This document shows, in pieces, positions 475 to 24,229 of a stretch of DNA of 64,000 nt (position 1 is its first letter; each line of letters starts with the position of its first letter). The notes beneath the pieces were generated by a model. It ran no database searches and was not told the DNA's origin. It was given only the letters and a program-made list of their open reading frames with translations. This stretch comes from Minutocellus sp. GHC0000111 (Eukaryota): contig OZ361261.1 of the NCBI GenBank assembly GCA_977018835.1, forward strand, positions 1,798,001 to 1,862,000, given 5' to 3'. Position numbers and translations under genes: made by a program.

Positions 475-636
475 GCACGTAGTTCAGAGGTGTTATTTGT
501 TCATAACATTGCAATTCATGCATTGTTGGGAGGATCTTTGGCCTCCCGGAACCTGTCGACGACGTTGCTTCGTTGCTGCGCCTTTTGGTACGGCAGTTAG
601 TCGAGCGGGTCTTTCGCCTGCAGCCTTGAAAGCGTA

Positions 637-3600
637 CCTTTCGAGTTCAGAGGATTTGAAAGTGACGTGATGATGACGTATTAGAAACACGACCACACCA
701 GACCAAAAATCCAAGCTCACTTTTTCTAACTCCGAGGAATAAATGACGGCCAAGATGGAAGTCGGGGCAAGAACCAAGTTATGGTCACCAACTTCTACAT
801 ATAGTCGAGAGATATTGTGCATCAGAACCAATAAATGTACATTATGTGATGATTTTTTTCGACATTTGCATTCCTCACCCCGGGAAAAAATACATTTTTG
901 GAAGCACCAAATCAAAATGTAATGAATAGAAATGGACATGCTATGATAAGTTATAGCAAATCAATGACTCCATCGTCTTCATCATTTTCATCTATGTCGT
1001 CCTCAATGTCATCATCTTCGCCGGGAGCATCAATTGGCCAGAGTGGTTCACCATCCTCTTCAGCTTCTTCCTCGGCAATTTTTGCGAGACCAGCCTTTCC
1101 CCGTCTGGTCTCCACAAGATTGTTACCGCCACGACTTCTCTTGATGTTGTTACATATCACTGGAAGTTTTCCAAATACATTGAGAAAGGCCTCTTTTGAT
1201 GCGACATTGGCCCATACTTTCATCACAGTCTTGTCAAGAGCATTCGCATCATTCTTCTGACCGCGATGCTCCTTTTCGACGGCCGACTGCAAAGACATCC
1301 AGATGCCGAGATCAAGAACATTTGTCTCGGGCGACCGAGGAACCTGCTGGATTATCTCAATCTTATATTTGTTTTTGAGGTCCTCGGTGTACTTCTCAAC
1401 TGCTTCATTGGACCCATGACCGCCGGCATTGTCCATCATAAGATGTGTAACATCAGACTCCTGAATATTTTGTGGATCCCACTTCACCCAATGATGTGCG
1501 TCTCGAATCGCCTTCCCGACCTCATTCACAGTCTCCAACATCCATTTGGAGTCGCAGCTACAGTCCTTGGTAACCTTATCGCCCCGTTGATACCGCACCC
1601 CGAGCTCAAGGTCGTCGATCTCAACCTTCACCTTCTCTCCATTGCTGTCAGGAGTGCGTCGCTTGAGACTCGAGATCTTTTGATTGTAGCCAACAGCGGC
1701 ATGCTTGCGATGGCCGGCGGTCATGTCAGCATTCTCGTCGTAAATGTCGCGCCAATCTTTGTCATTTTTAGCGCATCGTTGACCTTAGCATCTGGAGAGA
1801 AATTCTGATTACGCGTAAGCTTTTCCACCTTCTGCTCCCTGGCGACTCTCTTGATCATGATGCGCCCATTGAAATCAACGTCTTTGGTTTCATCCTTCAT
1901 TGGTCGGCCAACAACTCCAAGACACATAACTTTGACAGGGGGTCTTCTGGATCGAATTTTCGGGCGCTTGCCTCAGAAGCATGGACAGACGCGAGGTTCG
2001 GACTGCTTAGTTCTTCGTCAGAAAGTGGCAGGCAACATCTTGATCTTTCGTCGCCGAGTAGCAGTGTAAAACCACTTTTCATCAAGATGCGCTACAGGAA
2101 TGTTGGGATCGGTCGCAATGTCCTCCCACTTTTCGATCCAATCAAGTCGCTTCCTACAACATTCCGGGGGTGAGCCTCGGCTTCTCGATCGACGACTTCT
2201 CCTTACCGCCTTGCTTTTTCCACCAGCGAAAAAGCTGAAGACGATGGAGACTAATTGTCAGCCTGTCTTCATCTGGAGTAGCTGATTTTGCGCTCATGCA
2301 GTCAGCTAGCTCCTTAAAGGTTGCCATCGCACCCTTCATCCGAGTGGCATGCCGATGCAGCTCGCGGAGACATCCTGGCTCCTTCTCCTCGACCATGTCC
2401 GTGCATGCCTTCCTTCCACGAACCTCCTTTCTGCAGATGGGATTGCTGATGCCATCAGCAAGGCTTTTGTAGAGCTGGTCTCTCCACTTGTAAAGCTGAG
2501 AACCACCGGTTGACTTGGCACAACCGTGATCGTGCGCAACTTGCCAACACGCGGCAGTTGCAACTTGTTGCCGGTCTTCATGCGTGCGAGTTGGGTCGCC
2601 GCATCCCCACCAATCCGCGAGAGCCACGGCGCTGAACCGCATTCTTTCATTCGCCTGCTTTTCTTTTCTGATTGGTGTTGGTTCGGTGACGGTTGCATTG
2701 GGACGAGGAGGACGGAGCATGTCATCGTTGGCCATCCGAACAACAAAAGTCGAGGCCGAGAGCGACCTTTACCTGTTCATCAATGTCACTGGAGGTGGCA
2801 CAGACAACGGAAGTGTCGGCTCCTCCTAAACCTTCATCATTGGGGGAGGCTGCAGCTAGCTGCTTCAGTGGCGGAAGCATCACCAGTTCCCTTCAGCATG
2901 CTGAGGAGACTTGCTGGCATCCAACCCAGTTTCTTGGCCTCGTCGACTAGTGATTTTACTCTTGCTTCGCAATGCGCTGACTGCACCTCCTTTCTGTGAG
3001 CTGACAACCTCTCACCTAGCTTAGTAGCTAAGACAGTCGAGCGCCCAGAGAACAGAACTTCATCGGCATTTCTTTTCTCGTGCACCTTCTGTCCCTCCGG
3101 TCCAGAGAATTTCGGGTGGTTGTCCTCCTTTTTTTTACGCAACCTGTGAGCACAAACATAAAGCGCCCTGCGTCTTGTCTTCCCTCTCTCGGCCGACACG
3201 TCGACAAGTGCAACTTCAAACTACAATGCTCCTTGAGATGTTGCTGCATGTCCTTCCATTTTTCCTCGTTGTACTGTAGCTCATACTTTCCTCCACCGAC
3301 GGACTTGGAACGCAACAAGTCGGCCTCGATGAAAAGCAGGGAGGGGACGTCTTCCCATTTCTGCCGAGAACCACCACAAATGTCATCTTTGCCGCGCAGG
3401 AATCGGGGGTTACTCTCCACCACAGATCCTTACCAGCCCTTCGAATGACATCTGCTGCAAGGAGAAAGGCCATGGGGATAGGAGGAGGGGCCGTCCTCTT
3501 CTTCGCCGACGACGGTGACGGTTTGGCGGGCGAATTTGAGACCACCGTGGCCGCTTCTTCGACACACGTGTTTGCGCTCGGCGATGGTGTTTTCGGCTCA

Positions 3601-3990
3601 GCTGCCGCCTTCCTGGATGCCTTGGTGTTGCCTCTCTTGCTCCCTGAGAACGAAGTTCTGCTGCGTTTGTATTTTTTGGGCGTGGTCTGGTTGGTCGTCG
3701 TCATCGTCACAAAATTTGCGGGTTGCGGTGAGGGTGTGCGGGGGACCAAAAAATATATGTGTTCCTGCCAGAATCTACTGGACCTGCGAATTCAGTGGAT
3801 ACTACTGGTCGGTGGCAACCTACTGAATGAGCAGGTCCAGTAGATATCCACGAGTTGAGGAGTATTTGCGTTCCTCCCGAAGAGAATATCGACTAACAAA
3901 ACACGTGGTGGGAAATGAGAAATGGGTGCAAGAATGACCTTTTTTAGGGGTTATTGGTATACCCTCTACAAATCCTCTGAAACCGAATGG
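637..3990 (-). mobile_element. Tc1/mariner-superfamily DNA transposon (DD39D type), full length, decayed
   Basis: 22-bp TIRs CCTTTCGAGTTCAGAGGATTTG (637-658) and CAAATCCTCTGAAACCGAATGG (3969-3990), 19/22 identical; TA on both sides (635-636, 3991-3992); internal transposase remnant. Confidence 0.9.
951..3704 (-). pseudogene. Frameshifted DD39D mariner-like transposase
   Basis: Motifs spread over several frames: AHLDEKWFY (~2070-2095), KVMCLGVVGRP, MMDNAGGH and QVPRSPETNVLDLGIW; 39 residues between the 2nd and 3rd Asp. Confidence 0.85.
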
Positions 3991-4163
3991 TAAGCAAGCA
4001 ACAGCAAGCAACACCGCAACAATGAACGAACACAAACCTGCACAAACCAAAGGCTGCCGATGAGACGCCAAGCCGGAGGAAGTCTACTTGTTCAAGTATC
4101 AAATATCAATAGCATCGTGTCAGTCGCTCCCTCCATCAATTCCACGAGCGCACCCCTCACAAA

Positions 4164-5663
4164 ATGGAGATGACGCTACCACGGCATGAAGCAAGCGGTC
4201 CGTCTTTCTCCAGCCGTCTCACTCCACGTGCCAGAGCCGTCGGCTGGATGGCGTTGGCAACAGGGGCTCATTTTGCAGCATATGAATTGGCGCGGAGTGC
4301 AACGCTGGCAATATTCACTTCCAAAAAGACCGGGTTCGAAAGCTCGTCGGCCCTGCCGCTGGCGGTGGGGTGCGTATCGCCCTTCTCGGTAGTGCTGCTC
4401 AGCTGTTACAGTTTTCTCCTCGACAAGCACGGACCGAGGACGGCCATCCGACTCACTACCTACATGTTTGCGGTGGTCCTTATTATTTGTTCGATGATAT
4501 TATGTCTGTGTCGACCAGTAGATGTTGCCGATGACAATGAGAGCAACAGTGCTGCTCAGTTGGGGTACATGCGGAACATATCAAGGGCGACGGTATTTAT
4601 GCTCTTTGTTTATCAGAATGCATCGGTCAGACTGTTGCACTCCCAGCACTGGTCCTTCATATCGAGTGTAACTCTCAAGAGCGAGGCCAAGGTTTGGTTT
4701 GCACCAATCACCGGGCTGGCATCACTCACATCGACCATATCGGCGGGAAGCATATCGTATCTCTTGGAGAGCTTTAATCTGTTTGGGCTGCTCGGGTTGG
4801 CAGCATCTCTAATGCTTGTGGGCAGCCGATGCAGTGATAACGCATATCGGACAGCCGCAATACACAATTTCACACCGACCAAAGAATCTGATGACAAGAT
4901 GAGTACCAGCCCAAGTCCGAAGGCGCAGGCACCAGATGCAACGCCGGGACGAGAAAAATGGCATGACAATGAAATGACAGAGGGTGACGACTCGGGTCAT
5001 TCGTCAAGCAAATCATTGTTTGCCAAGGCCAGGACTCTGTTTAGACGGGTGCCAATACTCGGTGCGCTCTTTGTGGAAGTTTTGCTTTGCCAATCGCTTT
5101 CATCGCTGCTAAACTTTTTATTTTTGGTAAAAACCAAAGAGGCCATACCCAATGATGAAGAGCGAGCGGGCTGGAGTGGAAAGTGCTACGCCTGGACGAA
5201 CGGTGTGTCCGGCTTTCTCCAATTTGTTGTGATGCCCATTGCCATGAAGTGGGTAGATCCGCGATACATATGGCTGGTGATGCCGTCAACTATGCTCATC
5301 CTCGTACTACGCCAGTGCCTTGCGACACAGTCGTCCCTCTTGCTAGTTGGTCTCTCCTTCTTTTGGATGAAGACGCAAGAGTACAGTTTTCGACCCGTAG
5401 TTTCGGAGTTGATCTATGTGACGATGGACTTTGAATCGCGATATCTTGGCAAAGAAGTAATCAACTTGATGGCCGACCGCATGGGAAAGAGCGGGATGGC
5501 AATGGCGTTGTTCGTCGCATCTACATTTTACGATGAGCAGGATCTGCTCAGCACGTTGTCAAAGGTCGCTTTTGTCGCAGTGTGTGTGTGGTTCCTATCT
5601 TCTCTGAGATTAGTGCGACCAGACGAGTTCGCGAACTGGAACAAAAATGAATACCAGTTTTGA
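4164..5663 (+). CDS. TLC/AAA-family nucleotide (ATP/ADP) transporter-like MFS protein
   Basis: 499-aa ORF with about 12 TM segments; YELARS at the N-terminus and KTQEYSFR...ELIY...RYLGKEVINLMADRMGKS typical of NTT/TLC carriers. Confidence 0.7.
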   Translation: MEMTLPRHEASGPSFSSRLTPRARAVGWMALATGAHFAAYELARSATLAIFTSKKTGFESSSALPLAVGCVSPFSVVLLSCYSFLLDKHGPRTAIRLTTYMFAVVLIICSMILCLCRPVDVADDNESNSAAQLGYMRNISRATVFMLFVYQNASVRLLHSQHWSFISSVTLKSEAKVWFAPITGLASLTSTISAGSISYLLESFNLFGLLGLAASLMLVGSRCSDNAYRTAAIHNFTPTKESDDKMSTSPSPKAQAPDATPGREKWHDNEMTEGDDSGHSSSKSLFAKARTLFRRVPILGALFVEVLLCQSLSSLLNFLFLVKTKEAIPNDEERAGWSGKCYAWTNGVSGFLQFVVMPIAMKWVDPRYIWLVMPSTMLILVLRQCLATQSSLLLVGLSFFWMKTQEYSFRPVVSELIYVTMDFESRYLGKEVINLMADRMGKSGMAMALFVASTFYDEQDLLSTLSKVAFVAVCVWFLSSLRLVRPDEFANWNKNEYQF

Positions 5664-6047
5664 AACTGGCATTCTCGGCAAGTGTCAGAATGGTAACTGC
5701 CGGTGTTGGCACTGGTAGATCTATCTACAATACAAGTTGCACTGTGCATCATATCTTGAATTTGCAAGCTACATGTACTGGTACAGTAGCAACATGATGC
5801 CGGCATAGCACAGATGCATGTACAGTTCATGACTTATATTTGCCAGAAGCAGCTAGCTAGATATTATTATTTATTCACTATATGTATTTAGTATCAGCTA
5901 ATGCCAATTATTGAGTATCAGCTCCGGCACTAATGTCGTCTGGACGTCTGGACCAGGTTTGGGCTGTGTTGCTTCACTATGAAAAAATGAAGCGAGGAGA
6001 AGCAAAGGCGATATCATCCATGCTAAATATTCATTATTTCTCGATTG

Positions 6048-6149
6048 ATCCCAGTTTGCAAACTGAGATTGTGCCTATGATCCCAGTTTCCAAACTGGGA
6101 TAAATAAATCCTAGTTCGCGAACTGGGATCCCAGTTCGCGAACTGGGAC
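6048..6149. repeat. Cluster of four ~22-bp palindromes ATCCCAGTT(T/C)GC(A/G)AACTGGGAT
   Basis: Units at 6048-6069, 6080-6101, 6108-6129 and 6128-6149, each near-perfectly self-complementary. Confidence 0.9.
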
Positions 6150-6214
6150 AGTGCGCATTTTGGGACTAACATATATATATCATAATGGCGACAATATACT
6201 GAAGCTGTCTATGT

Positions 6215-7081
6215 TTACGCGCAGCTCGGAAAGCTCTGCTTTTGCTTCATGTTTTCAATTGGTGTGTTCCTGATGCAGTGTTCGACCTTCTTTTCGTTCA
6301 TTTCTGGCCGAGACGACTGAATTGGCCCGCCCTCAACTTCGAGATCTACACCTCTTTGCCGGCGATCTTCCTCGGCACAAGCCTTGTCTTCAAATCGAAG
6401 CTGCTGCTTCACGTACTCCTCATCGATCCTAGCCAGTTTGACGGCCCGGTCACGGGAATAGCGCGAATTGCGATACGAGACGTTTGCTAAGAGGAAGGAC
6501 GGGGTGCCTGTCGATCGACCAGTCTCCAAACGGCAGGCCTGCTGTTCTCGTAGAATTGTAGCAACGTGCTCCTGCTTAATGGTCTTTTGTACCTTCTGAG
6601 AAAGCTTGGACTTGTGATGTTCGATTCCCCGGAAGCAAATTTCAGCTTCGGACTCATTTGCAACGGAGTAGATTCGATTGCGAATTTCAGTTGTGCTTTC
6701 TCCGAGCTCGCATCGGAGTGCAAGGACACTAATGCACATCTCCCTGTGCGAAGCAATCTTGTCTTCCGCGGAGAGCCATCTTTGTCGCCTTTCGTCGAGA
6801 GTCATTTCCTGAAAGCTGTCGATTAAGCTCATCTCAACGAATGGGTGGAATGACACTCGACGAGAAGTTGATGTGGCGAGCGCATGCTTTGTAGTATCGG
6901 AGGCCACCTTGGTCATTGTGAGAGATGAATTTCTTCTTTGCTTCTTTGTAACGGCGGCCAGCAAGATATTGGAGAGTTGTGTCCCAAGCGACGAGCGTCT
7001 TCTTGGCTTTGTTGACTTACTTCTTTTGGCTTCACTTGAAAATGATGCGTGGTCATCTATCGCAACTCTCTCGTCCCTCAT
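6215..7081 (-). CDS. Hypothetical protein of a diatom-type family (RRVSF...W...RGIEH)
   Basis: 288-aa ATG-initiated ORF with the RVSF / W-x-S / RGIE pattern common in diatom hypothetical proteins. Confidence 0.65.
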   Translation of the reverse strand: MRDERVAIDDHASFSSEAKRSKSTKPRRRSSLGTQLSNILLAAVTKKQRRNSSLTMTKVASDTTKHALATSTSRRVSFHPFVEMSLIDSFQEMTLDERRQRWLSAEDKIASHREMCISVLALRCELGESTTEIRNRIYSVANESEAEICFRGIEHHKSKLSQKVQKTIKQEHVATILREQQACRLETGRSTGTPSFLLANVSYRNSRYSRDRAVKLARIDEEYVKQQLRFEDKACAEEDRRQRGVDLEVEGGPIQSSRPEMNEKKVEHCIRNTPIENMKQKQSFPSCA

Positions 7082-7174
7082 CGTTCTTGTGATGTTTCAA
7101 GATCAAACTTACTGCACGGAGACTCTCCGTGCTTACTGTGCCAACGAGGAGGATATTTGTAGGACGCAGTCTGA

Positions 7175-7642
7175 GACGTTGCCGGCAAAGGCCTCAAGTG
7201 GGCAGATGCCAAGGTCGGATCTGGTCAACCGGTTCAAAATGGAGCGTCGGTGAGCATCGATTATTCCATCGCCTCGACCGCCGGTAGGTTTCCACAAATT
7301 TACACAACGAAAGACAAGGGACAGCCCTATCGCTGGACTCTTGGCGATGGCAGTACCATTGAGGGCATCGAAAGGGCAATCATTGGGGATGAGAAGGACG
7401 GAATTCCACCTATGCTGCCCGGCGGAGTGCGGCGCGTTATCGTGCCATCTGCTTTGGGCTATGAAAAGCTAAGCAAGGCGAATGCCAAGTGTATTGACGG
7501 AGAGAGTGGCTCCATCGGCCCCATACCACCCAAGAGCGATATCGGCGCATACCAACGATGGTATAGCTTCTACTGCAATCCAAGAATTCCGTACCAGCCT
7601 GATTTGGTGCTCGATATCAAACTTTACGGACGTAGAAGTTAG
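7175..7642 (+). pseudogene. FKBP-type peptidyl-prolyl isomerase, 5'-truncated
   Basis: Frame reads GLKWADAKVGSG...VSIDY...IEGIE...MLPGGVRRVIVPSALGY...LVLDIKL; in-frame TGA at 7172-7174, and no start or upstream exon visible. Confidence 0.7.
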
Positions 7643-7748
7643 TGTCAATAGCGATCTTTGCTAAGTTCACAACGAGAAGATGAACTGCTAAAACACACTC
7701 TTATGCGATACCCTCCAATTGCTAAAATAAATAATTGCTTGAGGCTTA

Positions 7749-8885
7749 TCAATGTCTCCTTTCTACAGTTTCGTCTGTGTCAACATGAACAAATGCGACC
7801 GATACTCTTTCGTCTGCTTCCAGTGATCTCTGAACGCTAACCGATAAGTCGTGTGCTTCCCCTGCCATTATGTTTGATGGTACAACAATGCAAACATCAA
7901 CCTGCAGCTCCTGTCCCATGAACTGCGACCGAATTCTCCCCACCGATTGAACCCCCTCAACCTTTCCTGCGATATCTTTCAACTCGTCCATTACATCCTT
8001 CGTTGGTGCACCGCCCATGATGTAAATAAGGTTCTCGTTGCCTAAATCAGCCCCATTGTAAAATACGTAAATACTCAGCAGAATTGCGAACATGCCATCG
8101 CCCCATCCGTATCCTGCCTTGGTCAGAGCGAAACCTCCGAGCGAAGCAATGAATGCAACAATATCATTCCTAGTGTCTACAAACAAGGCATTCAATGCCA
8201 AATTTTCGGACGGACGAAACGATGTCACAAACAATATGGCCACAATCAATAACATTTTCAATCCTCCCTTGGCTCCCAATATGGCAGCAATGGTAACATC
8301 GGCTTCTGGATACGATTGGGTCGAAAGCGATATGATGGCACTTGCAAACACTTGTATTGCCACAACGCACGTGATGACGGCAACAATTCAGGCACCAATG
8401 GGTTCGGCTCGCTGATGACCATACAAGTGGTCCCGATCGGCCGGTCGTCTGGCAACTCGAGCCGCATATGCAATCACCAGGTTGGCACCAACGTCGAGGA
8501 AGGAATCGGCGGCCTGCGCCAACACGAGTTGTGATGATGTTAGGGCGTAGACCCAAATGGCGGCCGCCAGAATGGCCGCATTTAGTAGGACTGAGGAGTA
8601 AAGCAATATCAGCGGCGCATCTAAACTTTCTGATTGGCAGAATTGCTTACAGCATGATGAACAGACCCGTGCTGTACTGTGGTCGCCATCGAGGGCTCGA
8701 TCCAAGTCGCCGCTATGTTCAGTCCATGCCACCCAGTCTGGCTCTCGGCCTCCGCTTCTTCGACGACGACGGCCCCGCGGACGATTTGGGGAGGATACAG
8801 ACGAGCACGCTGAGGTGGACAACTGATCGTCGGCATCTCCCGTTGGTGACGAGGCGAGAGAGACCGGCATGGCCTTATGCGTCAA
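7749..8885 (-). CDS. Cation diffusion facilitator (FieF/MTP-like) with one in-frame TGA at 8388-8390
   Basis: AQAADSFLD, HLYGHQRAE, DTRND and C-terminal EAHD...FVHVD motifs; the two ORF-track pieces are in the same frame. Confidence 0.85.
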
Positions 8886-9382
8886 CGGCCTGAAATGGAA
8901 AAATATTGATGATAGATCTAGCTAGGCAATAGGTTCTGCTGTTATAATCAGGACAAGTTTAGCATGTATCTCGCGTGAGTGGTATCTATCTTGTCAAAAA
9001 TGAGGGTTTCTTCTGAATGACGTTATGCAGTTAGTGGTTTCCTTCTGTCGTCACAACAAGCAGCACAAGAAGGAGCGGCACAAGATCATCAGCGACCTTC
9101 ATTTCTTCCGTTGACTTTTTACCGCGTCGGAGGGAGAAAGCAACGCCCACTTCGCCGAGCGAGGCGGTTTGCTGGTATTGGCGTCTATGCGCGGCAATTG
9201 GATTGGTGCGCATAAAGGCCATGGATAGCAAGATGATCGTCGACGAACAGAGGCGTAGCAGCAGCAGGAAGCGACAACGCCAAAGTGCAACACAAAGAAG
9301 TTCTTACAAACCCAACGCATGCATGATCACAAACTGTCACAACTCGAACAATACCGGTAATAGATCTGCCTTTCGAAACAAG

Positions 9383-10981
9383 ATGAGATCGAACAAAAAA
9401 AGTAACGTCTTGGCACTCACCCTGACCCTATTGTTGGCCACATTTACCAGCTGCTGCCATGCCAAGGAAGACAAGGATAACAAGAATGGCAACGCGGGAG
9501 CAGGTCTGGTCGACCCAGCCAAAGCGCACTGGAATCATGCCGCGGCCAAGGCCGGGTACGTCGTTCACGTCGTCGCCGACGGTCTCCGTCCAGATCACAT
9601 GCTGGATTATCCCAACTTTGCCTACCTGAAGAGTCATGGAGTCGGCACGGGCAATGCTCGTAATCAGTTCGAGAGCCCGCAGACTCTGCCCAATCACATC
9701 TCGATTTTCACAGGGCTCTCGGTATCGCAACACGGACACTTTGAGGACGGAGATGGCAAGGCCAAGCTGACGTCGTTTGCCAACATCTTCGACCTGGTCA
9801 AGGCCGTGGGGGGAACCACCGCCTTTTATGGCGTCAAGGAAAAGTTCAACACCTTTGTCGACAACAAGTGGCAGATCGACAACTACGTCTTCACCAAGTG
9901 GGCCCATCGTGTGATGAACAATTGGATGGACGATATGACGGCGAATCCATACACCTATTCCTTTGTCCACTTTCGCGAAGCCGATCGAGCCGGACATTTG
10001 AGTACCGGGGCCAACAGCACCCAGTATTCCGACGCCGTACAGCAGATGGACGAATACATCGGCCAAATGCTCGATTTCATCAGGACCAATCCCGCCCTCA
10101 ATGGGAATACCGCGATTATACTCACATCTGACCATGGCTTTGAAGAGGTTGGCAATCACAATGATCTCGATGATCCGCTCGTCTTTAAAGTGCCGTTCTA
10201 CGTGTATGGTCCAGCTGTACTCCAAAACAAGGACATTTACGAACTCAGCAACCTCAAAGATCCTGGCAATGAGCGGCTAACACCCTCGTGCATCTTCAAC
10301 GCATACTCTGGCGTAATGGCGGCATCGCTGCTTGGGATTAATTATGCCGAGGGACCGTTTTCGAAACAGTATCTATCTGTGACGGGTGCCAAGGACAGCT
10401 CTAGCGCTGCTGCAATGAGCAATCAGGCTGCGATAAATCAGGCACCGATCGAGGTCTTACCGCCGAGTGGAGTTGGCGTCACTCCGGCAGACGACCCAGA
10501 TAACTGCGTCTACTGTCCCAATGAACCCAACGATGACATGAAGGTAAAGGGACGAACATGTGAGGCTTGGAGGCTCGTTCCTCAGAAGTGTCTATCGCCA
10601 TCCAACCAATGGATCGCGCAGCAGACCTGCCAGCGAAGTTGCTACTTTCACGGCAACCCCTACGATTCGACCATCTGCTGTCGAAATGCCGAGCCTCCCA
10701 CTGCTCCCACTTTGCCGGTACCCAATCCTCCTGCAGACCCCCAGCCTGTGATCAGTGAGCCTGCTATCAGTGAGCCCGTCCCTGCTAATCCTGAACCTGT
10801 CACCAATGAACCCATTGCTGATAATCCCGACCCCGTCATAGCTCCCGAGCCTGTCGCTGATGTGCCTAAGCCGATCGAAAATGCACCGGTGACCGATCCC
10901 AATCCACCTCCGCCTTTACCGATAGACACGCCGATCGAAATATCTCAGATACTGGCTGAGCAAGCTGCCGCGGCATTTTAA
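9383..10981 (+). CDS. Secreted alkaline phosphatase / type I phosphodiesterase-family protein with Cys-rich module and Pro-rich tail
   Basis: Signal peptide; VVADGLRPD, TLPNH, DRAGH and TSDHG metal-binding motifs. Confidence 0.8.
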   Translation: MRSNKKSNVLALTLTLLLATFTSCCHAKEDKDNKNGNAGAGLVDPAKAHWNHAAAKAGYVVHVVADGLRPDHMLDYPNFAYLKSHGVGTGNARNQFESPQTLPNHISIFTGLSVSQHGHFEDGDGKAKLTSFANIFDLVKAVGGTTAFYGVKEKFNTFVDNKWQIDNYVFTKWAHRVMNNWMDDMTANPYTYSFVHFREADRAGHLSTGANSTQYSDAVQQMDEYIGQMLDFIRTNPALNGNTAIILTSDHGFEEVGNHNDLDDPLVFKVPFYVYGPAVLQNKDIYELSNLKDPGNERLTPSCIFNAYSGVMAASLLGINYAEGPFSKQYLSVTGAKDSSSAAAMSNQAAINQAPIEVLPPSGVGVTPADDPDNCVYCPNEPNDDMKVKGRTCEAWRLVPQKCLSPSNQWIAQQTCQRSCYFHGNPYDSTICCRNAEPPTAPTLPVPNPPADPQPVISEPAISEPVPANPEPVTNEPIADNPDPVIAPEPVADVPKPIENAPVTDPNPPPPLPIDTPIEISQILAEQAAAAF

Positions 10982-11096
10982 CTACTGCATAGTTCGGACA
11001 ACTTAGACATATTATTCGTCATGCGTTACTAGAATTTGTTAATGTATCATCTTGTTCATGTACATGTATTTCTAGACTTCGCTCCCTTTTGAAAGT

Positions 11097-11188
11097 AAAA
11101 GCGCTTCGTCATCGATGAAAGCGATGAAAAGTGTTATACCAGTAGTATTCTTTTCCTCGCTTCATTCATCAAGTCATTCAACGCCCTC
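11097..11188 (-). promoter_or_regulatory. SECIS element in the 3' UTR of the selenoprotein
   Basis: Minus-strand RNA folds by eye into helix I GAGGGCGUU/AGCGCUUUU, A-UGAC...UGAC non-Watson-Crick quartet, helix II UUGAUGAA/UUCAUCGA, unpaired AAG ~10 nt above the core, and an apical stem GAAAAG/CUUUUC. Confidence 0.75.
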
Positions 11189-11228
11189 AGAGTAGGTACA
11201 TATCGCACATTCTATTGCATTCAAAAAT

Positions 11229-11780
11229 TTACTGCAGATAATCGGGAACGTCAATATCCAAATCTTCCAATGCCTCGATCATTTCTCTCTTGACGCCGGC
11301 TTTGGCTCTTCGGCTGGTAATCTGCCGAGTTCCGCCTACCACTTGTTTGCCCTCCGAATCAATGATTCGGAGGTACCCCCATCAGGAATTCTCTAGGCCG
11401 GTCGCCCACTTTTTCATTGCCTTATTTCGTTTGGGGTTGGATCGATCCCATGTGTTGAAGGCGCAGGGCACAAATAGTTCCTCAGCGGCTCGCTTGATGG
11501 CTGGATCGGTAAAGATTGCGCCGGCATCCTTACATCCCTGTCAGCCACTCCATTCGACAAAGTTGGCAAATATTGGCTTGCCAGTCTGAGCCGCAATGTC
11601 GATGGCAATCTGATAATCACCATGACGAGCATCCGACGTGAGATTGACGTATTGGATGGTGCCAAGCTCGACGTAGGAGTGGGATGGCATTGTAGGAATG
11701 GAGGAAAGCACGTCGTCGTTGTCGTTGGCAGCAGGCTGCACTGTTGCTGTGTTTCTCTTGCTTTTGAATATGTTTCGCAT
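11229..11780 (-). CDS. Thioredoxin-fold selenoprotein (resembles the bacterial VPGUxxT-type Trx-like family) with two UGA codons
   Basis: Read-through gives MPSHSYVELGTIQY...GKPIFANFVEWSG-U-QGC...ELFVPCAFNTW...ENS-U-WGYLRIID...VPDYLQ-TAA; TGAs at 11541-11543 and 11382-11384; alternative start 11690; SECIS downstream. Confidence 0.85.
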
Positions 11781-11960
11781 TGTTCTATTATTATCTTGAG
11801 AGAGGAAATGGAGGGTATGCGAATCAAGATATGAACTCGTCGCCTGCAATGTCACGCAAGATGTTGCTTGGTGAAAGTTTGAATGATTGACGGAAAAGTG
11901 CTTGAGCTGGGAGGCTTTTTCCACGTTGATAAGTCGACTCACTCGATTGTTCGAAGAATC

Positions 11961-12058
11961 TGTCACAAGTCGGCCGGCCAAAAGAGGGCCGGTTGGCGCG
12001 CAAATTGTCACAAGTCGGCCGGCCAAAAGAGGGCCGGTTGGCGCGCAAATTTGTGACA
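11961..12058. repeat. 45-bp perfect tandem duplication bounded by inverted TGTCACAA/TTGTGACA
   Basis: Units 11961-12005 and 12006-12050 are identical and followed by TTGTGACA. Confidence 0.9.
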
Positions 12059-12535
12059 TTCGTCGTCCTCGATCAATGGCAATAATTCATCCCACCAAGG
12101 CGCAGCGCACCTCGACCAGAGCATTTAGATTACAATCAAAGAAAGTGCATGTGAGTAGAGATCTCTCGAACCATTCAAAATTTGATTTGCGAGGGGCAAG
12201 AGTCAATAAGTCAGGTCAACCTGAACTCGGCACGAACGAACTAATCTCTGAAAGGGAAGTGGCGCCAAAGCCAGACATTCAAAAGAAAAAGTAGATGAGC
12301 ACTTGTGACATACCCAAAGTAGACGACAGAAGTAACAAACCAGCGAGTTCTGATTCCTCGATCGACCAACTACGAAGCAGCATGAGAAACGTATCCATTC
12401 AGCTTCCGGCTGATCACAGCCCAACGGCCCACAGTAGTCGCAAACAGATGCAGCAAGACGGACAGTGGAGTAGCAGCCGCGAACAGCAAAACAGCAGGAG
12501 GAGCTCTCTCCAAAATCCCCGACTTGCTCGACACC

Positions 12536-13003
12536 ATGTCGGGAGACTCGGAGGATTACTGCCCATCCCTAACCTCCGTCTCCATGGCATCGCACACCAC
12601 GCACAACACCGTCTTTTCCGGTCGATCCGGTGTGACCATGTCGAGCCTCCGCAGTGACCACTCTGGTTCCCTCATGGACGACACCTTTGACGATCTGTCC
12701 GACGGTGACGAATCTGATGCCGAGGTGGAATGCCGCCGACGTGCGGCCGATTGGCGACACAATAGTTTGATGGCGGCCGTTGCCGCTTCGCCGGCTGTTG
12801 GTAGATTACAAAGAGCAGACGGTGGTAGTGAGAAGGGTCGTATGCTGGTGCGAAGTGATACCATGGAAGTTGTGGAGAAGAGTCACGGTACACAGGCATT
12901 GACGGCTGGATGTCACGTACCAGAAGAGACGGACTTTGCCAACCAATATCTCAGCACATTGTTTTGTGGCTTGGGTGAAGTCATGGGCTGTGGTGGAAGG
13001 TGA
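12536..13003 (+). CDS. Small hypothetical Ser/Asp-rich protein
   Basis: ATG-initiated 155-codon ORF with coding-like composition; no family recognised. Confidence 0.35.
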   Translation: MSGDSEDYCPSLTSVSMASHTTHNTVFSGRSGVTMSSLRSDHSGSLMDDTFDDLSDGDESDAEVECRRRAADWRHNSLMAAVAASPAVGRLQRADGGSEKGRMLVRSDTMEVVEKSHGTQALTAGCHVPEETDFANQYLSTLFCGLGEVMGCGGR

Positions 13004-13426
13004 ATGGGAGAATATTTATTGGTGAATGAATACTGTACCTGTAGAAAAGTTTGGTGCCTGGATCTCTCGATTGAAAGAGTAACAGATGTAGAAGAGAGTG
13101 AAGTATTGATAACAACAAAAGGGGAAGGGTACGCTTTTCCTCCCCTTTCCTCCAATAGATGTGTCAAATTAATAACACGCATAACGTACGTCAAAATACA
13201 CAAAAAAAGCATATCATTAGCATGGTATCGCCTGTGATATCTTATCTCAAAATGCATACAGTGTACTAGTTGTCACTTATATTGCCATATCGATATCAAT
13301 AACATTAACATACTAGCTAGGCTAGGCCAAAACTTGTTCAATGACAACGAAATGAAATGCCGCTAGCCTAAAAGCCTATACCAATCCCAGCAAATGTAGC
13401 TAGTAGCTACTATTGTAGCTACGTAG

Positions 13427-13880
13427 CTAAGGGAGAGTAGAAAGGAGTGCGATCGAACACAGAAGCAACCCAGCATGAGGGACAATGTGGTTTGGTAGGA
13501 CGTTGGGTGCATTGAGAATTTCTCCACGCTGGGGTCCTACGTAGCAGATTCCTGCATTAATGGCACAAACAGCAGGAAAGGCAAGGTGCTTGTCGGCAAT
13601 ATGGATGAGGTACAGCTGGCCGAAGCCTTGGAAGCCGAACATGACCATGAACAGCTCTCCAAAGTTATCCTTTGGGGGCTTGGAGAAATTATCCTTGAAA
13701 AACATCGTGGGGAGGAAGGTGAATAGAGCAAAGAAGCCCGCGTCAACAATCATCGTGAAGGCAATTGCCCTTTCGACTGTCACAAAGCTTTCCTTTGGCG
13801 TCACGAATGCACCGATGACGCCGAGAAGGGATCATGCGAGACTTTGCGTCAGGTGGAAGGGGGGAAGCTTTGATCGCCAT
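13427..13880 (-). CDS. Small membrane protein with a 1-nt frameshift near 13830
   Basis: MAIKASPLPPDAKSRMI joins LLGVIGAFVTPKESF... if one C is removed from ATCCCTT; hydrophobic helices follow. Confidence 0.55.
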
Positions 13881-14263
13881 TATTTTTTGCTTCGTTGGTA
13901 GGCGGATAAGCAGTATTTGCCAGGCACGTAGGAGCGTTTGGTATCTTTCAATCTTTCTCGACATCTTTCCCGCGATCGCACAAGCACCTGCGACGTTGAA
14001 AAAGTACATTCACCAACTCCTACATAAGCCCCGCAGGCCCCTCTGTTCCCGTCACCTCTCTGTTCCCACCAAGCTGAAATTTGCCCCCCCACCGTCGTCG
14101 AAGATGATCCACCGAGCAAGAAGGCACACAACACATCCCTGCCTCTTCAATGCCGAAGTCATTTTTGATTTGCAAAATACTTTGAACTCGCTTCATTTTT
14201 CTCTCATCACCTACCTCATTATTCTCGAATTCTTCAACAAAAAAGCACATCTCGAGAAAGACA

Positions 14264-17200
14264 ATGAAGTTGAATCTACATCTGCTCGTCCTTTCCGCCC
14301 AACTCGCCTTGGCCACTGCATACCCATCCTACTCTTCTGATGATGACAAAGCCGGCACCGCTGGCGGCGGCCTCAGAAAGGCCCCATGTCCTTACTCTAC
14401 TGGATTCGCGGCCGAGCTCTCGGATGAGCTGGCTGAATCACGTCGCCGACAGCGCCGTCTGGGTGCAGAAGAAGATGATCATTCTTCTCAACCTTTCAAC
14501 AGAAATGACCCTCGATCCCTCCAAGATGGTCTGCTCAATGAAGGCAAGGGTTGCTGGGGCTTCTGCGACTCCAACACTGGCAACTGTGCCTACTGCGGCA
14601 CCGGGCAGTGCTGTCGCTCTACCGACTATCAGAACGGCGTCCCGGGTTGTGAGCTGGCATATCAAATCGTGAGTGGTTCCAGATGCGGTGCGTGGGCCGG
14701 TGACCCGCCCATCGGGCTGAGGAATGAAGGCCTGGCTTGCTCCGGCAAATGCCCCGATGGATTTGGCGCACACTGTGCCTTCTGCGGTTGGTGGGACGGC
14801 ATCCCCAACGGCAGTGGACAGTGTTGTCGCGTCGTTGATGGGGAGCGAGGTGTGCCGGGATGTGAGCTCGCTGCTTGGGGTTTACCCGATCCAGATGGTC
14901 CGTCTTCTCAGTGCGGCGCATACAAGGATATTAATGAAAGTAATGACGAGCCTTCACCTCCGAGCCCACCCTCGTCAAATCCGCCCGCACCAAGTCCTGT
15001 AGTTGATACAAACAGCGATCTGATGAACGAAGGCTTCCTCTGTGAGGCTACCTGTGGGTTTTCAGGAGACCAATGGGGGCAGGATCGCTCCTGTCCTCAA
15101 TATTGCGGCGCATTAGGACTATGTTGCAGCGCCTTTGACTGGAGACGTGGTGCAGCCGGGTGCGAATGGGCCGAGAATGTGACAGGAGCAGCAATCTGTG
15201 GTATGTTGAACGATGGTGAATCGTCTTGGCAAGAACCAGATGATTTCCGGCCTGGAATGCCAAGAGGAGTTTATACAACACCCCTTGATGTATCGGTGAA
15301 TTTCGAAAGCGTGGCAGAAGGGCGCTGGATCAAAGACACTATGGTCGACGGAAGCAATGTAGGGGATCATCATGTGCCACAGTATTCCGGTGAGGGAGGT
15401 CAGCCTTGGAGCCTCTTCGAGATGGCTGTCGTCCGTGATATCCTCACTTTCGAAATGCGGCAAGCCACAGGTGAGTATATAGCTACATATTACGAGCGAT
15501 GCCGCATGCATACCATGATATAACTCTTTCAATGCATACTGAAACATTGCTTTCTAACTTACTCTGCGCCTTCTTCCGTTACCATTTTTTGTAAACAAAT
15601 CTACACAAACACAGCCGGACTCGACGAGATCAGCTCCGCCAAGTTCATCCGTCTACCCTTCCATGACTGTTTGCATTACCAGGGCGACGATACTGGCAGT
15701 TGTGATGGGTGCGTTAATTGGGAGAATGTTGGATTCCGTCACGATGGTCGAGTCGAAGAGCGAAACTACGAAGATTTCGAGCGTCCCCGCCCTAGCTCGA
15801 GCAACAATGGACTTGGGGACGCTATCGAGTTTCTGGAGTATATATTCACTCTTGATTTGGGAAAGACGTGGGCATCGGGCTGCTACATCAAGCCTGGTGC
15901 TGTGGTTGGTCAGGATGTCCATCTTGCCAACACAAGATATGAGCCAATTACAGTGAGCAGCATCGAAGAGTGCCGTGATCATTGTTGGAATACCACTGAT
16001 TGCAGGTACTTTACCGTTCCACATATGAGAACCCTCAACTCCAGAGGACCCTGCCGTTTTTTCAATAGTACTGGTACCATGCGCCAAACCAGTGGATCTG
16101 GACGCTTGGTTGCTGCCGATGCACACTGCGAGGCTGAAAGCTGGTCACTACAGAGCCGAGGAAAGTCGCGTGCTGACCTGTGGGCTTTTGCGAGTCTTGT
16201 TGCCATCGAAGAAGGTATTCAGCGGCACAATTGGGCATGTAGTGGTGACCGTCGGTCGCCTCACAATGGCCCAATCATGTGCACTCAGTTTGAGGGCGAA
16301 GATCAATGCAGAATCGAGCTTCCCCGCCCATTTGTTTTTAAGACAGGCCGAAAGGACTGCGATGGGGATTCCTACAATACCGAGAAGAAAGAGAATGCCC
16401 CCGATGAACACTTCAATGGCACCATGACGGTACGATTCATGGAAGACAACTTTGGTTTTAGCGGTAAAGAGACTGTGACCATCATGGGAGCCCATACAGT
16501 GGGAAGATTCCATCAACGACAGACAGGCCACAATTATGTTTGGACTACCGATTATCAAGCTTTCAACAATCAGTACTATCGGAATATTGCAGGCAAGCCC
16601 GATTGGTTCTTCGATGATGCTGAGTGCACAAGAGTTGGTGATGCTTGGGGGAATAAGGGACATGCTGTATGGATTGCGAAGATGAACCAAGTCTACCGAA
16701 CAGGTGGCCCAATCCAATGGATCCAGAAAAAGGTGAGTGATAGAAAATACACCATGGCTATGTATTATCTACTTTCCTCTCATTTCTCTGGCCCTACTTA
16801 CATGTAGTCTATACTGACCCTTCTACGCTTTGTAACTTTCTTTCGCTCACAACTACTGCAGGTCGTTTGTCCAAATTGCGCTGATCAAAGCTATGAGCGT
16901 GGCGGGCGCAATCCCCAGCGCGTTGCCCAAGACAGAGACTGTTGCCTGAACAATGTTCCTGAGGGAGCCCAGTGCCGGCCCGACGGTATGGGCCTACCTG
17001 GATCAAGGGCCTTTGATCGCGACGATGACTTCTCGGATGGCTGTGAGTATAGCCATTTCATCTTCGGAAGAGACGAGGCCGCCATGGGCAGCGACATGGG
17101 ACTGAGGTATAAATTCGATGTCGATATCCGCGCTTTTCCATATGGCTGCCCGGGTCTCCAAACCTTCTACCCTTCTGGCTTCCGATTTTCCGACGAGACT

Positions 17201-17572
17201 TGTGGCATCGATGGGCGTCCTCGGTTCGTTGACCCTACACTTGCTTGGGATGATCCGAACGCAGAACGTGTCACCAAGAATGACTGGACGGACGACGCCT
17301 GCCCGGCAGATTGTTCTAGGCAGGACTATCTTTATCCGGGCGATAGCCGTACTCTTGCAGACTGGGTCGATCTTTATGCCGACGACCAGGCAGCTTGGAT
17401 TCGCGAGTTTGTCCCGGTCATGGAGAAGATGATCAACAATGGATATTCAGATGATGATCTGGTGACCTCATATGATGGTGGGTGCGCTCCCGATACTGGA
17501 ACAGGTGCATTATGTTTGTCTGACGCCGAGTGTTGCTCCGGTGTTTGCCACGGAGATGGACGATGCTTGTAA
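14264..17572 (+). CDS. Secreted heme peroxidase (non-animal superfamily) with N-terminal Cys-rich repeats; exons 14264-15470, 15615-16732, 16862-17572
   Basis: Signal peptide; distal FIRLPFHDC, SRADLW, GRKDC and proximal IMGAHTVG; both GT-AG introns restore the frame. Confidence 0.85.
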
Positions 17573-17683
17573 ACCACGTGCATGAAAAGTATGTTTTAGA
17601 GTAAGAAAGAACAAACGCGCAGTCGCAATTCCGCGCTCAGTAAAAAATTTAGAGGTTTATAAACAACAATTCAATTTTATCTA

Positions 17684-19603
17684 TTAAAGCATGAGCAACT
17701 CAGGCTTGGCCAGATACTTGTTCAGTGACGAGAGGAACAACGCAGCGGTCGCCTCATCGACAACTCTTCGATCGGCACTGAGTCGAGCCGTCATGAGCGT
17801 CTTGACGGTCGGCCGTCTCTTGGCATCGGAGGCATTCTTCTCCTCATCATCGATCCATTTACCCGGAACCACCGTCTTGACACCACCGCCGACGGCCAGG
17901 ATGGCCGCCTGGGGTGGGTTGATGACGGCCGAAAACTCGGTAATGCCAAACATGCCCAGGTTGGAGATGCAGAAGGTACCGCCCTGATATTCCTCCGGGG
18001 CGAGCTTGCCGTCGCGGGCACGGGTGGCCAAATCCTTGACCGATGCCGATATCTCCGACAGGCCCAGCGTGGACGTTTGCGGGACGATGGGGGTAATAAG
18101 TCCAGTGGGGGTGGCAACGGCGACGGAAATGTCAACGGTGTCATGTGTGCTGACCGTGTTGGTCTTGGGATTGTACGTGGCATTGACCTCGGGGACGTCG
18201 CGAAGGGCCAGCGCGGCACTTCGGATGACCAGGTCGTTGACGCTGACCTTGACGTCGTGGTTGTTGGCCAGCTGCTTGCGCAGAGCGAGCGCGGCATCGA
18301 GCTCAATCTGGACGGTGGTGTAGAAATGAGGAACTTGCGATTTAGACTCCGTGAGGCGCTTGGCAATGACCTTGCGCATGTTGTTGTTCGGCACGTCCTC
18401 GTAGGTGGAATCGGTAGTGATGGGTGGAATGGTCACATCGATCGGAGTGGGGGCAGCGGCAGCTTGGGCCGCTGGAGCTGCATCGGCAGCCTTGGCGGCC
18501 AGAGGAGGCATGTACACACCATCCTTGAGGGCTTTGAGGACGTCCCCCTTGGTCACGCGTCCACCCTTGCCGGTACCCTCCAAGACGGTGGCATCGACAC
18601 CGGCCGATTGGGAGATGGATCTAGCCGAGGGCATGAGAGCAAATTCCGGTGGAACGTCCCGAGCGGGGGCTGCAGTGGCAGTGGTTGCCGGGGTAGCAGC
18701 AGCGGCTGGGGCAGGAGCCTCCTCCGCGGCATCACCACCAGCAGGGGCAGCAGCCGCCGCCGCAGCCTCTGGCGCAACAAAGTCCTTAAAGGCGGCAATG
18801 TCCTCCTCCTCTTCGACCGTGACCATGACGGGCGTGCCCACCGGTATCTCTCCGCTTCCGGCCTCGACCAGAATCTTGGCCACATATCCATCGTCCTGAG
18901 CCTCAAAGGCTGCATAGGCGCAATTCCCAAGTCAAGATAGCAAAAGTTCCAGGACAAAATATGTCGCATTATATGTTTGTGGTTTGAGGCACGATGAGAC
19001 GGCTGGAGTTAGAAATGGAATGGTATGATCTGGATAAATAATCAAAAACAATAATCATAAGCTGCGCTTGAAAGTGACAATCACACACACGCATGCATGT
19101 TGCATATGCGTGCATCCTTCCACTCTCAGGCAATTTAATTTTCCCACTTATGGAACGCAACGACACGTACCAATGGTGGCCTTGTCGGTTTCGATCTCGG
19201 CGACGGAATCGCCGGCCGCAAAGGCCTCGCCCTCCTTGACGTTCCACTCGGCGATGGTGCCGGCCTCCATGGTCGGAGAGAGGGCGGGCATGCCCACCAC
19301 CAGATGATACGGCAGATCATCGGACGAAATGTGCCGAATTTGCTGCTGCGTCCGAGTGCTGGGGTTGGGGGTAGATTCGACCGACAGAGAAGACGAGGCG
19401 ACGAGGTTTCTGCCCGACAGGGACGAGTAGGTGGCTGCAGAAGAGGTTGCAATGCTAGGCAGCTGCTGCCTTGCCGTCCTAATTGCCGCCGCGGAAGGAG
19501 CCGAACTACTCATCGAAACTGCCGATGCGGCCGCCGATGTGGACCGTATTCTGCGGGCGGCGTGGAGGGCGGCCCTCCGGCCGACGCCGAGCGTGTGGGA
19601 CAT
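17684..19603 (-). CDS. DLAT: Mitochondrial pyruvate dehydrogenase E2 (dihydrolipoamide acetyltransferase); intron 18910-19170
   Basis: MPALSPTM...ETDKA lipoyl domain, [14 protein letters not shown]3-binding domain, catalytic domain [13 protein letters not shown]. Confidence 0.93.
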
Positions 19604-20203
19604 GGTTCTATAGCTCCAACGGTATCTAAAATCGGACAAGGAAGATGAAAGCAGTCAGGGATCAGAGGAAGCAAAGGTTGCCGCTCTTCTTCTGACTTCT
19701 TCCGTTCCGTTCTTCCCCATTGTGGCCAAGCTTCTCTTGAGATGGCGACGCGACGGCATAAAATGCCGAAGAATAAAATGACGTCATCTCGGAAAGCGGC
19801 GTTGAGCGCCAAAAATGAAGTCGAAGACGAGGACGGAGCGGAGAGGGACGGATCGAGCGGCCGGCCGAGCATCACAGTCGCCGCTACTCACAGTGCACCG
19901 CTGCTACGTAGCTACGCCGGTGCCTTTTCGTGCTGCAAGCAGGAAGATACCAATCTATTGGTCGTTGCCGCGACTAATTCCCGGTCCTGAGATTCGAGCA
20001 CGTAACATAGCTGACGCTGCAAAAGGTCATCGGATTTGCCTTGCCTTGCCTTGCCTTGTGCCTTGTGCCGCGTGCCGTTCGTTCCATCGGCTTCCATCTT
20101 TCCTCGGTTGCATTTGGCGAATCTTGGTTGCAGTGCGCCCTTCTTGGCATCGGATAGTTGAAGGTGACTTTGTGCACGGGGCATTCCCTAGTTTCGAAGC
20201 ATC

Positions 20204-23200: not shown

Positions 23201-24229
23201 CAGCTTCCGCGGCCGAGGCCACCTCCCAAGGACGCAAGATTGCGCGTGAACATGAGACTTGCCGACATCCACAACCTTGTCCGCCCAAGCTTTATCGCCG
23301 GCAGCGCTCGAGTTGCACCGGCCCCGCCTCCTCCATCACAAGGACAAGCCGCTCTCGGTCAGATGGCGCCGCAACCTGCAGCAGCCCCAGCTCCAAGCGC
23401 TTATGCTACCGACTTGCTCTCCATGGGCGCTGCTCCGGCTCCTCAGCCACCCGCTCAACAGCAGCAGCAGCAGGTGTCCAGGCGCGATACTTTCGCCCCG
23501 CAGACGAGCACCGATTAGCTTGCCGACATTTTCAGTGCTGCAGCAGTAACTTCTGCTGCTGCACCGGCTCCGTCGGCACCGGTGCCAGCTGCCCAGCCTG
23601 TACCTGCACCTGCTGCCATGCCGCCGGCTCATGGTGCTCCCTCGCCCAGTATGCAGCAAATGCAGGGATCGGTGCCAGCTCCAACCCCGGCTGCTCCTAT
23701 ACCGGCGATAATCGCACAACCAGCTCACGCAACGCAGCAGCAGTATCGGCCGCAGCAGCAGCATCAAATGCCCGGTGTACGCGCGATGGCGTCTCCCCAA
23801 CCAAGTAATCAACCTGCACAACATTATGCGCAGTCGGCAGCTCATCCCGGGGCCATGCAGCAGCAAGGGGGGTATCAGACTGCGCCGGCAGTGCAAGGGT
23901 ACCAAAAACAGTCGCAACAGCGTCCTATGCAAGGTTATGGGCAGCAGCCGCAGCAACAACAGGCGGCACCGTCTGCTCAAGCAATGACTGGCTACCAGGT
24001 CTCTCAGACTCAGCAACCTCAGCAGCAGCGACCACCTTCTATGGCAGCTTATCCTCCAGCCACAACTTATGGACAGCAACAGCAACAGCAACATCCAGGA
24101 ATGTATCAACAGCAACAGCAACAGCCATCTGCACAGCAGATGCAGCAGTACCCGGGAGCCGCGCCGCCCCAGCAAGCCCAGCCAAATGTGAATCTAAACA
24201 ATTTGGCCCAGTTCGATCCATTTAAGTGA
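20204..24229 (+). CDS. DENN-domain protein with ENTH-like domain and Q/P-rich tail; intron 20694-20963; in-frame TAG at 23516-23518
   Basis: RFAFP, HTFAMQ...RVYG, LLCERRVV and WQHVYVP...APMPYLVG DENN motifs; WKHG..ALQLL..LLLHG; C-terminal DPF. Confidence 0.85.

Follow-up and report, generated by a model that had tools for sequence, protein, structure and literature searches.

A 64-kb window of the Minutocellus sp. GHC0000111 genome (contig OZ361261.1, positions 1,798,001 to 1,862,000; called the window below, with all coordinates counted from its first base) contains, at about 632 to 3995 on the minus strand, the dead remains of one copy of a mariner-like (DD39D) DNA transposon; the copy is frameshifted, and the transposon is present in high copy number. 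Comparison of the copies of this transposon revealed a footprint of transitions from TpA to CpA or TpG that is real and directional and that, in the DNA examined, marks only this mobile family. The explanation that we favor, with moderate confidence, is locally targeted hypermutation of the transposon copies at the DNA level, likely through an enzyme that deaminates adenine to inosine in 5'-TAY-3'. A preliminary reading of the window made from sequence alone had proposed such a process, as a mirror image of fungal repeat-induced point mutation (RIP), from a shortage of TA dinucleotides and from His and Cys residues in the transposase at places where Tyr seemed more natural.

Results

Variation among transposon copies is concentrated at TpA steps

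The variant table for the element was compiled from contigs with at least 80% likeness over 901 to 3800 in runs X15, X17, X18, and X1 (three runs of the source organism and one metagenome); it represents a subset, built from short repeat contigs in which variants close to the contig ends are missed. It held 32 variable places, of which 29 were transitions and 3 were transversions. At 26 of the transition places the A or T allele lay inside a TpA step, while 2 were of the CpG type and 1 was of another type; alleles were A/G or T/C outside a CpG-only context at 27 of the 29. TpA-class positions, which account for 19% of the stretch, varied at about 18 times the frequency of all other positions. 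Five TA steps varied on both the T side and the A side, giving CA, TA, and TG states among the copies, and the run at 1444 to 1449 reads ATATATA in other copies. Synonymous and noncoding sites had also changed (1449, 3754, and 3756).

The same procedure applied to 20 kb of adjoining host DNA (4001 to 24000) yielded 392 variable places; among the 40 of these 392 that were listed, 4 were of the TpA type and 8 of the CpG type, together with 10 other transitions and 18 transversions. TpA-type changes were therefore found at 26 of 32 places in the element versus 4 of the 40 listed host places (Fisher P = 1e-9), and within run X15 transitions made up 27 of 30 in the element versus 112 of 186 in the host stretch. 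Run X4, with two contigs in all over the host stretch, contributed nothing further. The element variants were not peculiar to one data set: sequencing runs from two studies shared them, as did predicted proteins of ENA assemblies and P0144, a family member from a JGI metagenome. For this one transposon family and these 20 kb of host sequence, the signature is confined to the mobile element and missing from the adjoining single-copy DNA, and the copy spectrum shows the excess of TpA transitions that the sequence-only reading had anticipated.

Ancestral tyrosines were replaced by histidine or cysteine

Alignment to intact homologues placed Tyr where the window copy has His or Cys, which identifies Tyr as the ancestral state. 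These homologues read EPGYLRELYRYA, VAYDHGY, WGY(S/G)D (one with Phe), R(K/T)AYTD, KVMYLGVV, and VIYL(M/V)MD. Nine of the ten residues that had been singled out as former tyrosines are conserved Tyr in the homologues; the tenth, in ADCM, had been misjudged, as the Cys of LADCMS is native and occurs in every homologue. Across the conserved-Tyr columns, Tyr was kept at 24 of 24 in P0190, 23 of 24 in P0189, and 22 of 24 in P0188; the counts were 1 of 11 in the sister copy P0181 and 0 of 7 in the window copy.

For a broader count, 180 proteins were mapped onto the element, of which 126 aligned at at least 80% identity, and the unmutated lineage of P0001, P0097, and P0118 served as the reference for Tyr retention; such counts see nonsynonymous changes only and include related copies. 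Among the 126 proteins, ancestral Tyr was unchanged in 35.3% of 317 cells and had been replaced by His in 128, by Cys in 74, and by another residue in 3, so that 202 of the 205 changed cells led to His or Cys, while non-Tyr residues were unchanged in 93.1% of 10,842 cells. Ile was the second most altered residue; its replacements, Thr, Met, or Val, are those predicted for ATA and for T|AT. Single-step variants present in at least two proteins were of the TpA type in 40 of 67 cases, a class to which 198 of the 3764 possible nonsynonymous changes belong; singleton variants, which are noisier and include gene-model artifacts, were of this type in 51 of 164 cases.

Relatives from metagenomes, with at most 69% identity, were used as an outgroup test. 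At the Tyr positions, the 45/46 aligned metagenome relatives had Tyr 161 times, Phe 63 times, His 12 times, and Cys 3 times. Judged by these alignments, replacement of Tyr by His or Cys is not a trait of the family, and the signature is missing from its relatives in other organisms. The direction of change from TpA to CpA or TpG, as first proposed, follows from the conserved Tyr of the outgroup, the sites with CA, TA, and TG states, and the depletion of TA.

The target is TAY on either strand, and events are independent

A TAY context, at first noticed in codons, was recovered at the DNA level: the base 3' of the mutated adenine was a pyrimidine in 25 of 26 events (T in 16, C in 9, A in 1, and G in none), compared with 64 of 132 unmutated TA adenines (P = 1.8e-6). 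Position -2 was occupied by A in 15 of the 26 events versus 33 of the 132. At the protein level, the change from Tyr to His was frequent after a purine, with 201 His in 14 purine-preceded columns; the two pyrimidine-preceded Tyr columns had 0 His (site 3160) and 11 in 43 (site 2522), and the change from ATA to ATG was seen only 5' of a pyrimidine. TA-step densities in the element, as fractions of those in the remainder of the window, were 0.38 for RTAY, 0.63 for RTAR, 0.77 for YTAY, and 0.97 for YTAR, and no RTAY step was left in 2151 to 2770. The target is thus 5'-TAY-3' on either strand, or equally RTA.

Changes fell on both strands, as had been proposed, with His and Cys outcomes intermixed in each copy. 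Eight Tyr sites displayed 42 distinct His/Cys patterns across 45 proteins. Adjacent events lay on the same strand in 95 cases and on opposite strands in 97 (shuffled mean same-strand fraction, 0.497), and no runs of same-strand events that would indicate strand coordination were found, the counts matching those of column shuffles. RTAY Tyr codons had become His 201 times and Cys 142 times, without a strong strand bias. Events were therefore independent for each copy and each site and were strand symmetric. They were also intense: most copies had lost 75 to 100% of the scored Tyr residues, whereas other columns differed from the family majority by 0 to 7%.

TA depletion accompanies the signature but does not establish it

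The TA counts given in the sequence-only reading were correct, at 2 in 2341 to 2760 (observed/expected ratio, 0.10) and 10 in the host-gene stretch 9541 to 9960 (0.46), and CpG was indeed still abundant in the TA-poor tract (0.96). The interval 951 to 3704 has 57 TA (0.36), while the whole window stands at 0.58, Pfam-supported host genes at 0.54, and host segments without a long open reading frame (ORF) at 0.76; it is odd that a pseudogene should stand at 0.37 when noncoding host DNA stands at 0.76. Among about 1060 sliding windows of 420 bp, 14 had at most 3 TA, 3 of them in the element and 11 in host genes (at about 20.3, 21.5, 52.0 to 52.3, and 60.0 kb). TA composition was rejected as sufficient proof, host coding stretches being similarly depleted. 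Composition alone is not decisive, since the TA content of the element only matches that of the lowest host windows; the comparison of copies is decisive.

Two TA-poor host coding stretches, 51500 to 52800 and 60000 to 62000, had TA ratios of 0.23 to 0.36 with raised CA plus TG. One encodes an acidic protein without a known family, and the other is a LETM1-like gene.

Structure and identity of the element

Between 951 and 3791, the transposase survives as seven or more frameshifted pieces, and the element is composed of the following parts.

632 to 3995, minus strand: dead mariner-like transposon copy, candidate full extent; the boundaries are inferred from the 27-nucleotide arms, contig depth, and flanking host ORFs
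632 to 658, no strand assigned: candidate terminal inverted repeat, left arm (pair I1)
951 to 1784, minus strand: C-terminal catalytic transposase piece with the second and third catalytic Asp (MMDNAGGH ... NVLDLG); from the ORF and 47 homologues
1721 to 1972, minus strand: frameshifted transposase piece with KVMCLGVV (KVMYLGVV in homologues); from homologue alignment
2018 to 2257, minus strand: frameshifted piece that carries the first catalytic Asp within VAHLDEKWFY, where homologues have VAYLDEKWFY; from homologue alignment
2154 to 2768, minus strand: N-terminal (DNA-binding side) piece, which holds the most TA-depleted tract, 2341 to 2760; from TA counts and homologues
2837 to 3791, minus strand: three overlapping frameshifted N-terminal transposase pieces (2837 to 3220, 3028 to 3429, and 3216 to 3791), matching the N termini of P0008, P0097, P0121, and P0188
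3773 to 3845, no strand assigned: subterminal hairpin-like inverted repeat within the element (pair I2; 24-nucleotide arms, 92% complementary)
3969 to 3995, no strand assigned: candidate terminal inverted repeat, right arm (pair I1)

The candidate terminal arms, as found in this copy, are imperfect (27 nucleotides, 85% complementary); no TA target-site duplication was seen at their outer ends. The upstream flanking host ORF stops near 470, and the next one begins at 4113. In the C-terminal piece, His or Cys has replaced Tyr at VTHL, DAH, RKH, and VIC, where intact homologues have VIYL, DAY, RKY, and VIY, and none of the seven conserved Tyr residues of the 2154 to 2768 piece was kept (3 His, 3 Cys, and 1 Phe). 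In the remainder of the window, ordinary eukaryotic genes of the host are densely packed, and no further copy of the element was found within the 64 kb.

The protein collection contained 47 homologues of the C-terminal piece, and full-length relatives of the transposase have 850 to 960 residues. Twenty sequences all had the second and third catalytic Asp, which correspond to D118 and D158 in the window piece and lie 39 residues apart; the first lies within LDEKWFY. In Pfam scans, neither the window pieces nor any of five homologues passed the threshold, the best match being DDE_3 in P0008 (E value, 0.13). An AlphaFold model of the intact homologue P0017 (mean pLDDT, 70.8) had Mos1 mariner, Metnase/SETMAR, and Sleeping Beauty as its top Foldseek matches (E values, 3e-6 to 2e-4; probability, 1.00), with an E value of 3.4e-6 and a probability of 1.00 against Mos1 (3hot_A) and a target TM-score of 0.77 against the SETMAR catalytic domain. 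The DD39D triad and the match in fold to Mos1, SETMAR, and Sleeping Beauty together identify the element as a mariner-like DD39D transposon. It shares with Mos1/Himar-type mariners (Tc1/mariner, DD39D) the triad of D, D, 39 residues, and D and the predicted fold of the catalytic domain. It differs from them in a much longer protein (850 to 960 amino acids) with a large insertion in the catalytic domain, in falling under Pfam thresholds, and in a TA target-site duplication that is not evident at the candidate ends.

The family is abundant, with one 90%-identity protein cluster of 275 members and a summed contig depth in run X15 of 3e4 to 5e5 over the element versus 100 to 800 in adjoining single-copy DNA. 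Given as a contig depth over 901 to 3800, the figures are 10^4 to 10^5 versus 200 to 500 for single-copy host DNA in that run. Twelve overlapping ORFs of at least 130 amino acids, on both strands and in several frames, cover the dead element between 493 and 3843, as would be expected if TA loss strips TAA and TAG stops. In one contig of run X17, positions 3294 to 3378 of the element are replaced by letters that include CCTAACCCTAACCCT, a telomere-like repeat; this contig may represent a copy that was broken and then capped by telomere repeats.

A side observation concerns a host gene. One contig of run X16 skips 15466 to 15609 and 16731 to 16859, both with GT..AG ends; X16 looks like an RNA run, and the skipped stretches look like introns of one or more genes spanning the ORFs at 14186 to 15523, 15524 to 16807 (peroxidase domain), and 16808 to 17572.

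A second repeat and a divergent paralog

A second repeat, at about 5618 to 6180, had a contig depth of about 1e5 in run X15, similar to that of the element, compared with about 300 beside it. It contains palindromic CCCAGTT(C/T)GCGAACTGGGA units at 5626 to 5643 and 6047 to 6150 as well as a core rich in AT, and it resembles a miniature inverted-repeat element. A divergent low-copy paralog of the transposase, P0192 (769 residues, 62% identical, encoded outside the window), kept 20 of 23 conserved Tyr residues. P0192 appears to share a contig of 1,095,704 bases with the hypermutated copies P0183 and P0150. It may belong to a spared or still active subfamily.

Discussion

The transposon copies examined here point to a process that acts on DNA, and adenine deamination in TAY is our leading guess for its chemistry, as judged from the footprint. 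TpA steps have been rewritten to CpA or TpG in each copy independently and on both strands, likely through deamination of the adenine of 5'-TAY-3' to inosine. We infer that adenine is the attacked base and that the enzyme is a deaminase of the TadA/ADAT type; by analogy with mutation accumulation in Bigelowiella natans (see below), the host probably directs the process actively against silenced or foreign DNA. Silencing marks or small RNA might provide the targeting. The codon outcomes are His or Cys from Tyr, Thr or Met from Ile (ATA), and Ala from Val (GTA). No new TAA or TAG stop could arise in this way, so a dead transposase would keep long open frames.

A closely similar process has been reported from B. 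natans, a rhizarian (chlorarachniophyte) alga. In a preprint by Mettrop et al. (bioRxiv 10.64898/2026.01.13.699255), mutation accumulation lines are reported to have gained 302 new mutations, 231 of them in two integrated viral regions, and 230 of these 231 were A to G or T to C, all on TpA; they arose in some lines only, at about 6e-7 per site per generation, which exceeds the background some 1000-fold. The same source describes TpA-poor coding sequences enriched in DDE endonuclease and reverse transcriptase domains and proposes an ADAT2 homolog as the enzyme. As in the integrated nucleocytoplasmic large DNA virus (NCLDV) and virophage DNA of B. natans, the changes in Minutocellus are almost only A to G or T to C and occur only on TpA, giving TpG or CpA by strand; within the DNA examined they keep to foreign or mobile sequence, the genome being ordinary otherwise, and they leave TpA depletion as their long-term footprint. 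The B. natans data consist of de novo mutations, mainly in a single-copy viral insert, whereas the footprint here is historical and lies in a multicopy cut-and-paste transposon. What the present analysis adds is the 3'-pyrimidine rule of TAY and the absence of strand coordination: diatoms are unmentioned in the main text of the preprint, the word "trinucleotide" is absent from it, and its passages on "motif" and "strand" hold neither a 3'-neighbor rule nor a test of strand coordination. By its pattern, the process in Minutocellus is of the same kind as that in B. natans. Literature searches gave no report from diatoms, in keeping with the earlier impression, and no relevant report of an A-to-G, TpA-directed transposon mutator beyond the B. 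natans preprint; the matching passages in SPLASH (PMC9258296) and in a Rhizoctonia paper (PMC7884421) were irrelevant.

Other known systems share parts of the pattern. As in RIP of Neurospora and other ascomycetes, dinucleotide-specific transitions inactivate inserted transposons and shift the balance of TpA against CpA plus TpG, but the direction is opposite: RIP makes TpA from CpA and creates stops, whereas here TpA is ancestral and destroyed (TA ratio, 0.37), no TAA or TAG is created, and open frames tend to stay. Like the decay of methylated CpG, in which 5-methylcytosine becomes T, the events are independent, strand symmetric, and site by site at a self-complementary dinucleotide, with a concentration in silenced transposons; the dinucleotide and the base change differ, and the CpG content of the element is near intact (0.90 to 0.96). 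The TadA and ADAT2-ADAT3 tRNA deaminases convert adenosine to inosine, as would be the case here. Their natural tRNA target, A34, follows U33 and so lies within a UA step.

Several observations weigh against deamination of TAY adenines in targeted transposon copies. The process is read here from its sequence footprint, in which a change of A to G in TAY is indistinguishable from one of T to C in RTA of the opposite strand. Among ADAT2 enzymes, deamination of adenine in DNA has been demonstrated for that of amphioxus alone, and its preferred context is GAA and not TAY (PMC10354150). The lowest TA ratio among 115 equally large host windows (mean, 0.58) is likewise 0.37, the value of the element, and host coding stretches reach 0.23 to 0.29 across 0.5 to 0.9 kb. 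Uncoordinated, site-by-site events look more like the decay of a marked dinucleotide than like the runs left by a processive single-strand deaminase; overall, the nonprocessive and symmetric pattern suits such decay and a deaminase equally well. Tyr loss forms a strong gradient along the element, with sites near saturated in its middle (2351 to 2603) and about 80% unchanged at 1154 to 1391, near the 3' end of the gene, and the Tyr codon at 2520 to 2522 varies in the proteins but is absent from the DNA variant table. Finally, the second repeat (533 bp at about 5618 to 6150) retains 39 TA (observed/expected ratio, 0.87) and 14 RTAY steps, so that either not all repeats are affected or this one is young.

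The last point bears on what triggers the process. The sequence-only reading had envisaged a genome defense mutator acting on repeats; the element-confined TpA signature agrees with this, but with the second repeat and the paralog both spared, repetition is not established as the trigger. In a true mirror of fungal RIP, duplicated DNA would be recognized by homology and then mutated. The affected family does have hundreds of copies (as seen from the 275-member cluster and the high contig depth), the signature is missing from single-copy host DNA, and the retention of Tyr in P0192 beside hypermutated copies can also be told in favor of such a trigger. Single RIP rounds are strand coordinated, which the events here are not, and a repeat of equal depth is not depleted of TA. 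The spared repeat, together with the single-copy viral insert that is the main target in B. natans according to the preprint cited above, argues against repetition as the sole trigger, and we regard a trigger by sequence repetition itself as unlikely.

Targeted adenine deamination must further be weighed against processes that would reach the same products by another route. Modified thymines favor TpA in some protists, and thymine in 5'-RTA-3' could be modified in silenced DNA, for example by TET/JBP-type hydroxylation, and mispair with G to yield C. The signature fits a change of T to C in RTA equally well, including the pattern of Tyr to His after purines, and the independent, strand-symmetric, site-by-site events resemble the decay of a marked dinucleotide; even so, we consider a thymine target improbable. 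A T:G-specific glycosylase or short-patch repair in transposon chromatin could instead resolve TpA mispairs to C:G, in analogy to the very-short-patch repair that erodes CTAG in Escherichia coli. Pure transitions that are strand symmetric and independent at each site are consistent with such biased correction, but it would need a very high rate, with most Tyr codons changed versus 0 to 7% at other columns, and we know of no context-specific repair of this kind in eukaryotes; we judge it quite improbable.

Two further accounts are contradicted by the data, and we give each of them very little credence. Ordinary genome-wide avoidance of TpA, through mutation bias, codon usage, or selection on an old insert, would agree with the TA ratio of the whole window and with the low values of some host genes. 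Against it stand the host polymorphisms (TpA type in 4 of the 40 listed out of 392), the TA content of noncoding host segments, and the state of the copies themselves, which are frameshifted pseudogenes with synonymous and noncoding sites changed too. ADAR-like editing of transposon RNA followed by reverse transcription and reinsertion would be suggested by the preference of ADAR enzymes for a 5' U, which is noted in the discussion of the B. natans preprint (bioRxiv 10.64898/2026.01.13.699255). The element is a cut-and-paste transposon by its DDD triad and predicted fold, and both strand senses are intermixed in each copy, which contradicts that route; a sequencing or assembly artifact is contradicted by the recurrence of the same variants across two studies, the ENA-assembly proteins, and the JGI metagenome.

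Targeted rewriting of A to G in DNA is not an established natural defense, and its sole direct report is the 2026 preprint on one alga. The Minutocellus family provides a second, independent setting, in another lineage and in a cut-and-paste transposon instead of integrated viruses. Its many independently mutated copies reveal the TAY target, the equality of the strands, and the independence of the sites, and they thereby constrain the mechanism and offer a substrate for assays. We tentatively propose, as a serious possibility that we place somewhat short of an even chance, that diatom-type algae and Bigelowiella share an ancient programmed editing of 5'-TAY-3' adenines in mobile and viral DNA, which would amount to a eukaryotic "adenine APOBEC." If they do share an adenine-editing defense, the TAY motif and the nonprocessive, strand-symmetric action, as read here from hundreds of transposon copies, would narrow the search for the enzyme. 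Dinucleotide statistics, gene prediction, and age estimates for transposon copies are likewise distorted by the process; through the erasure of TAA and TAG stops and the loss of Tyr, dead transposons come to resemble long open reading frames, a trap for gene prediction.

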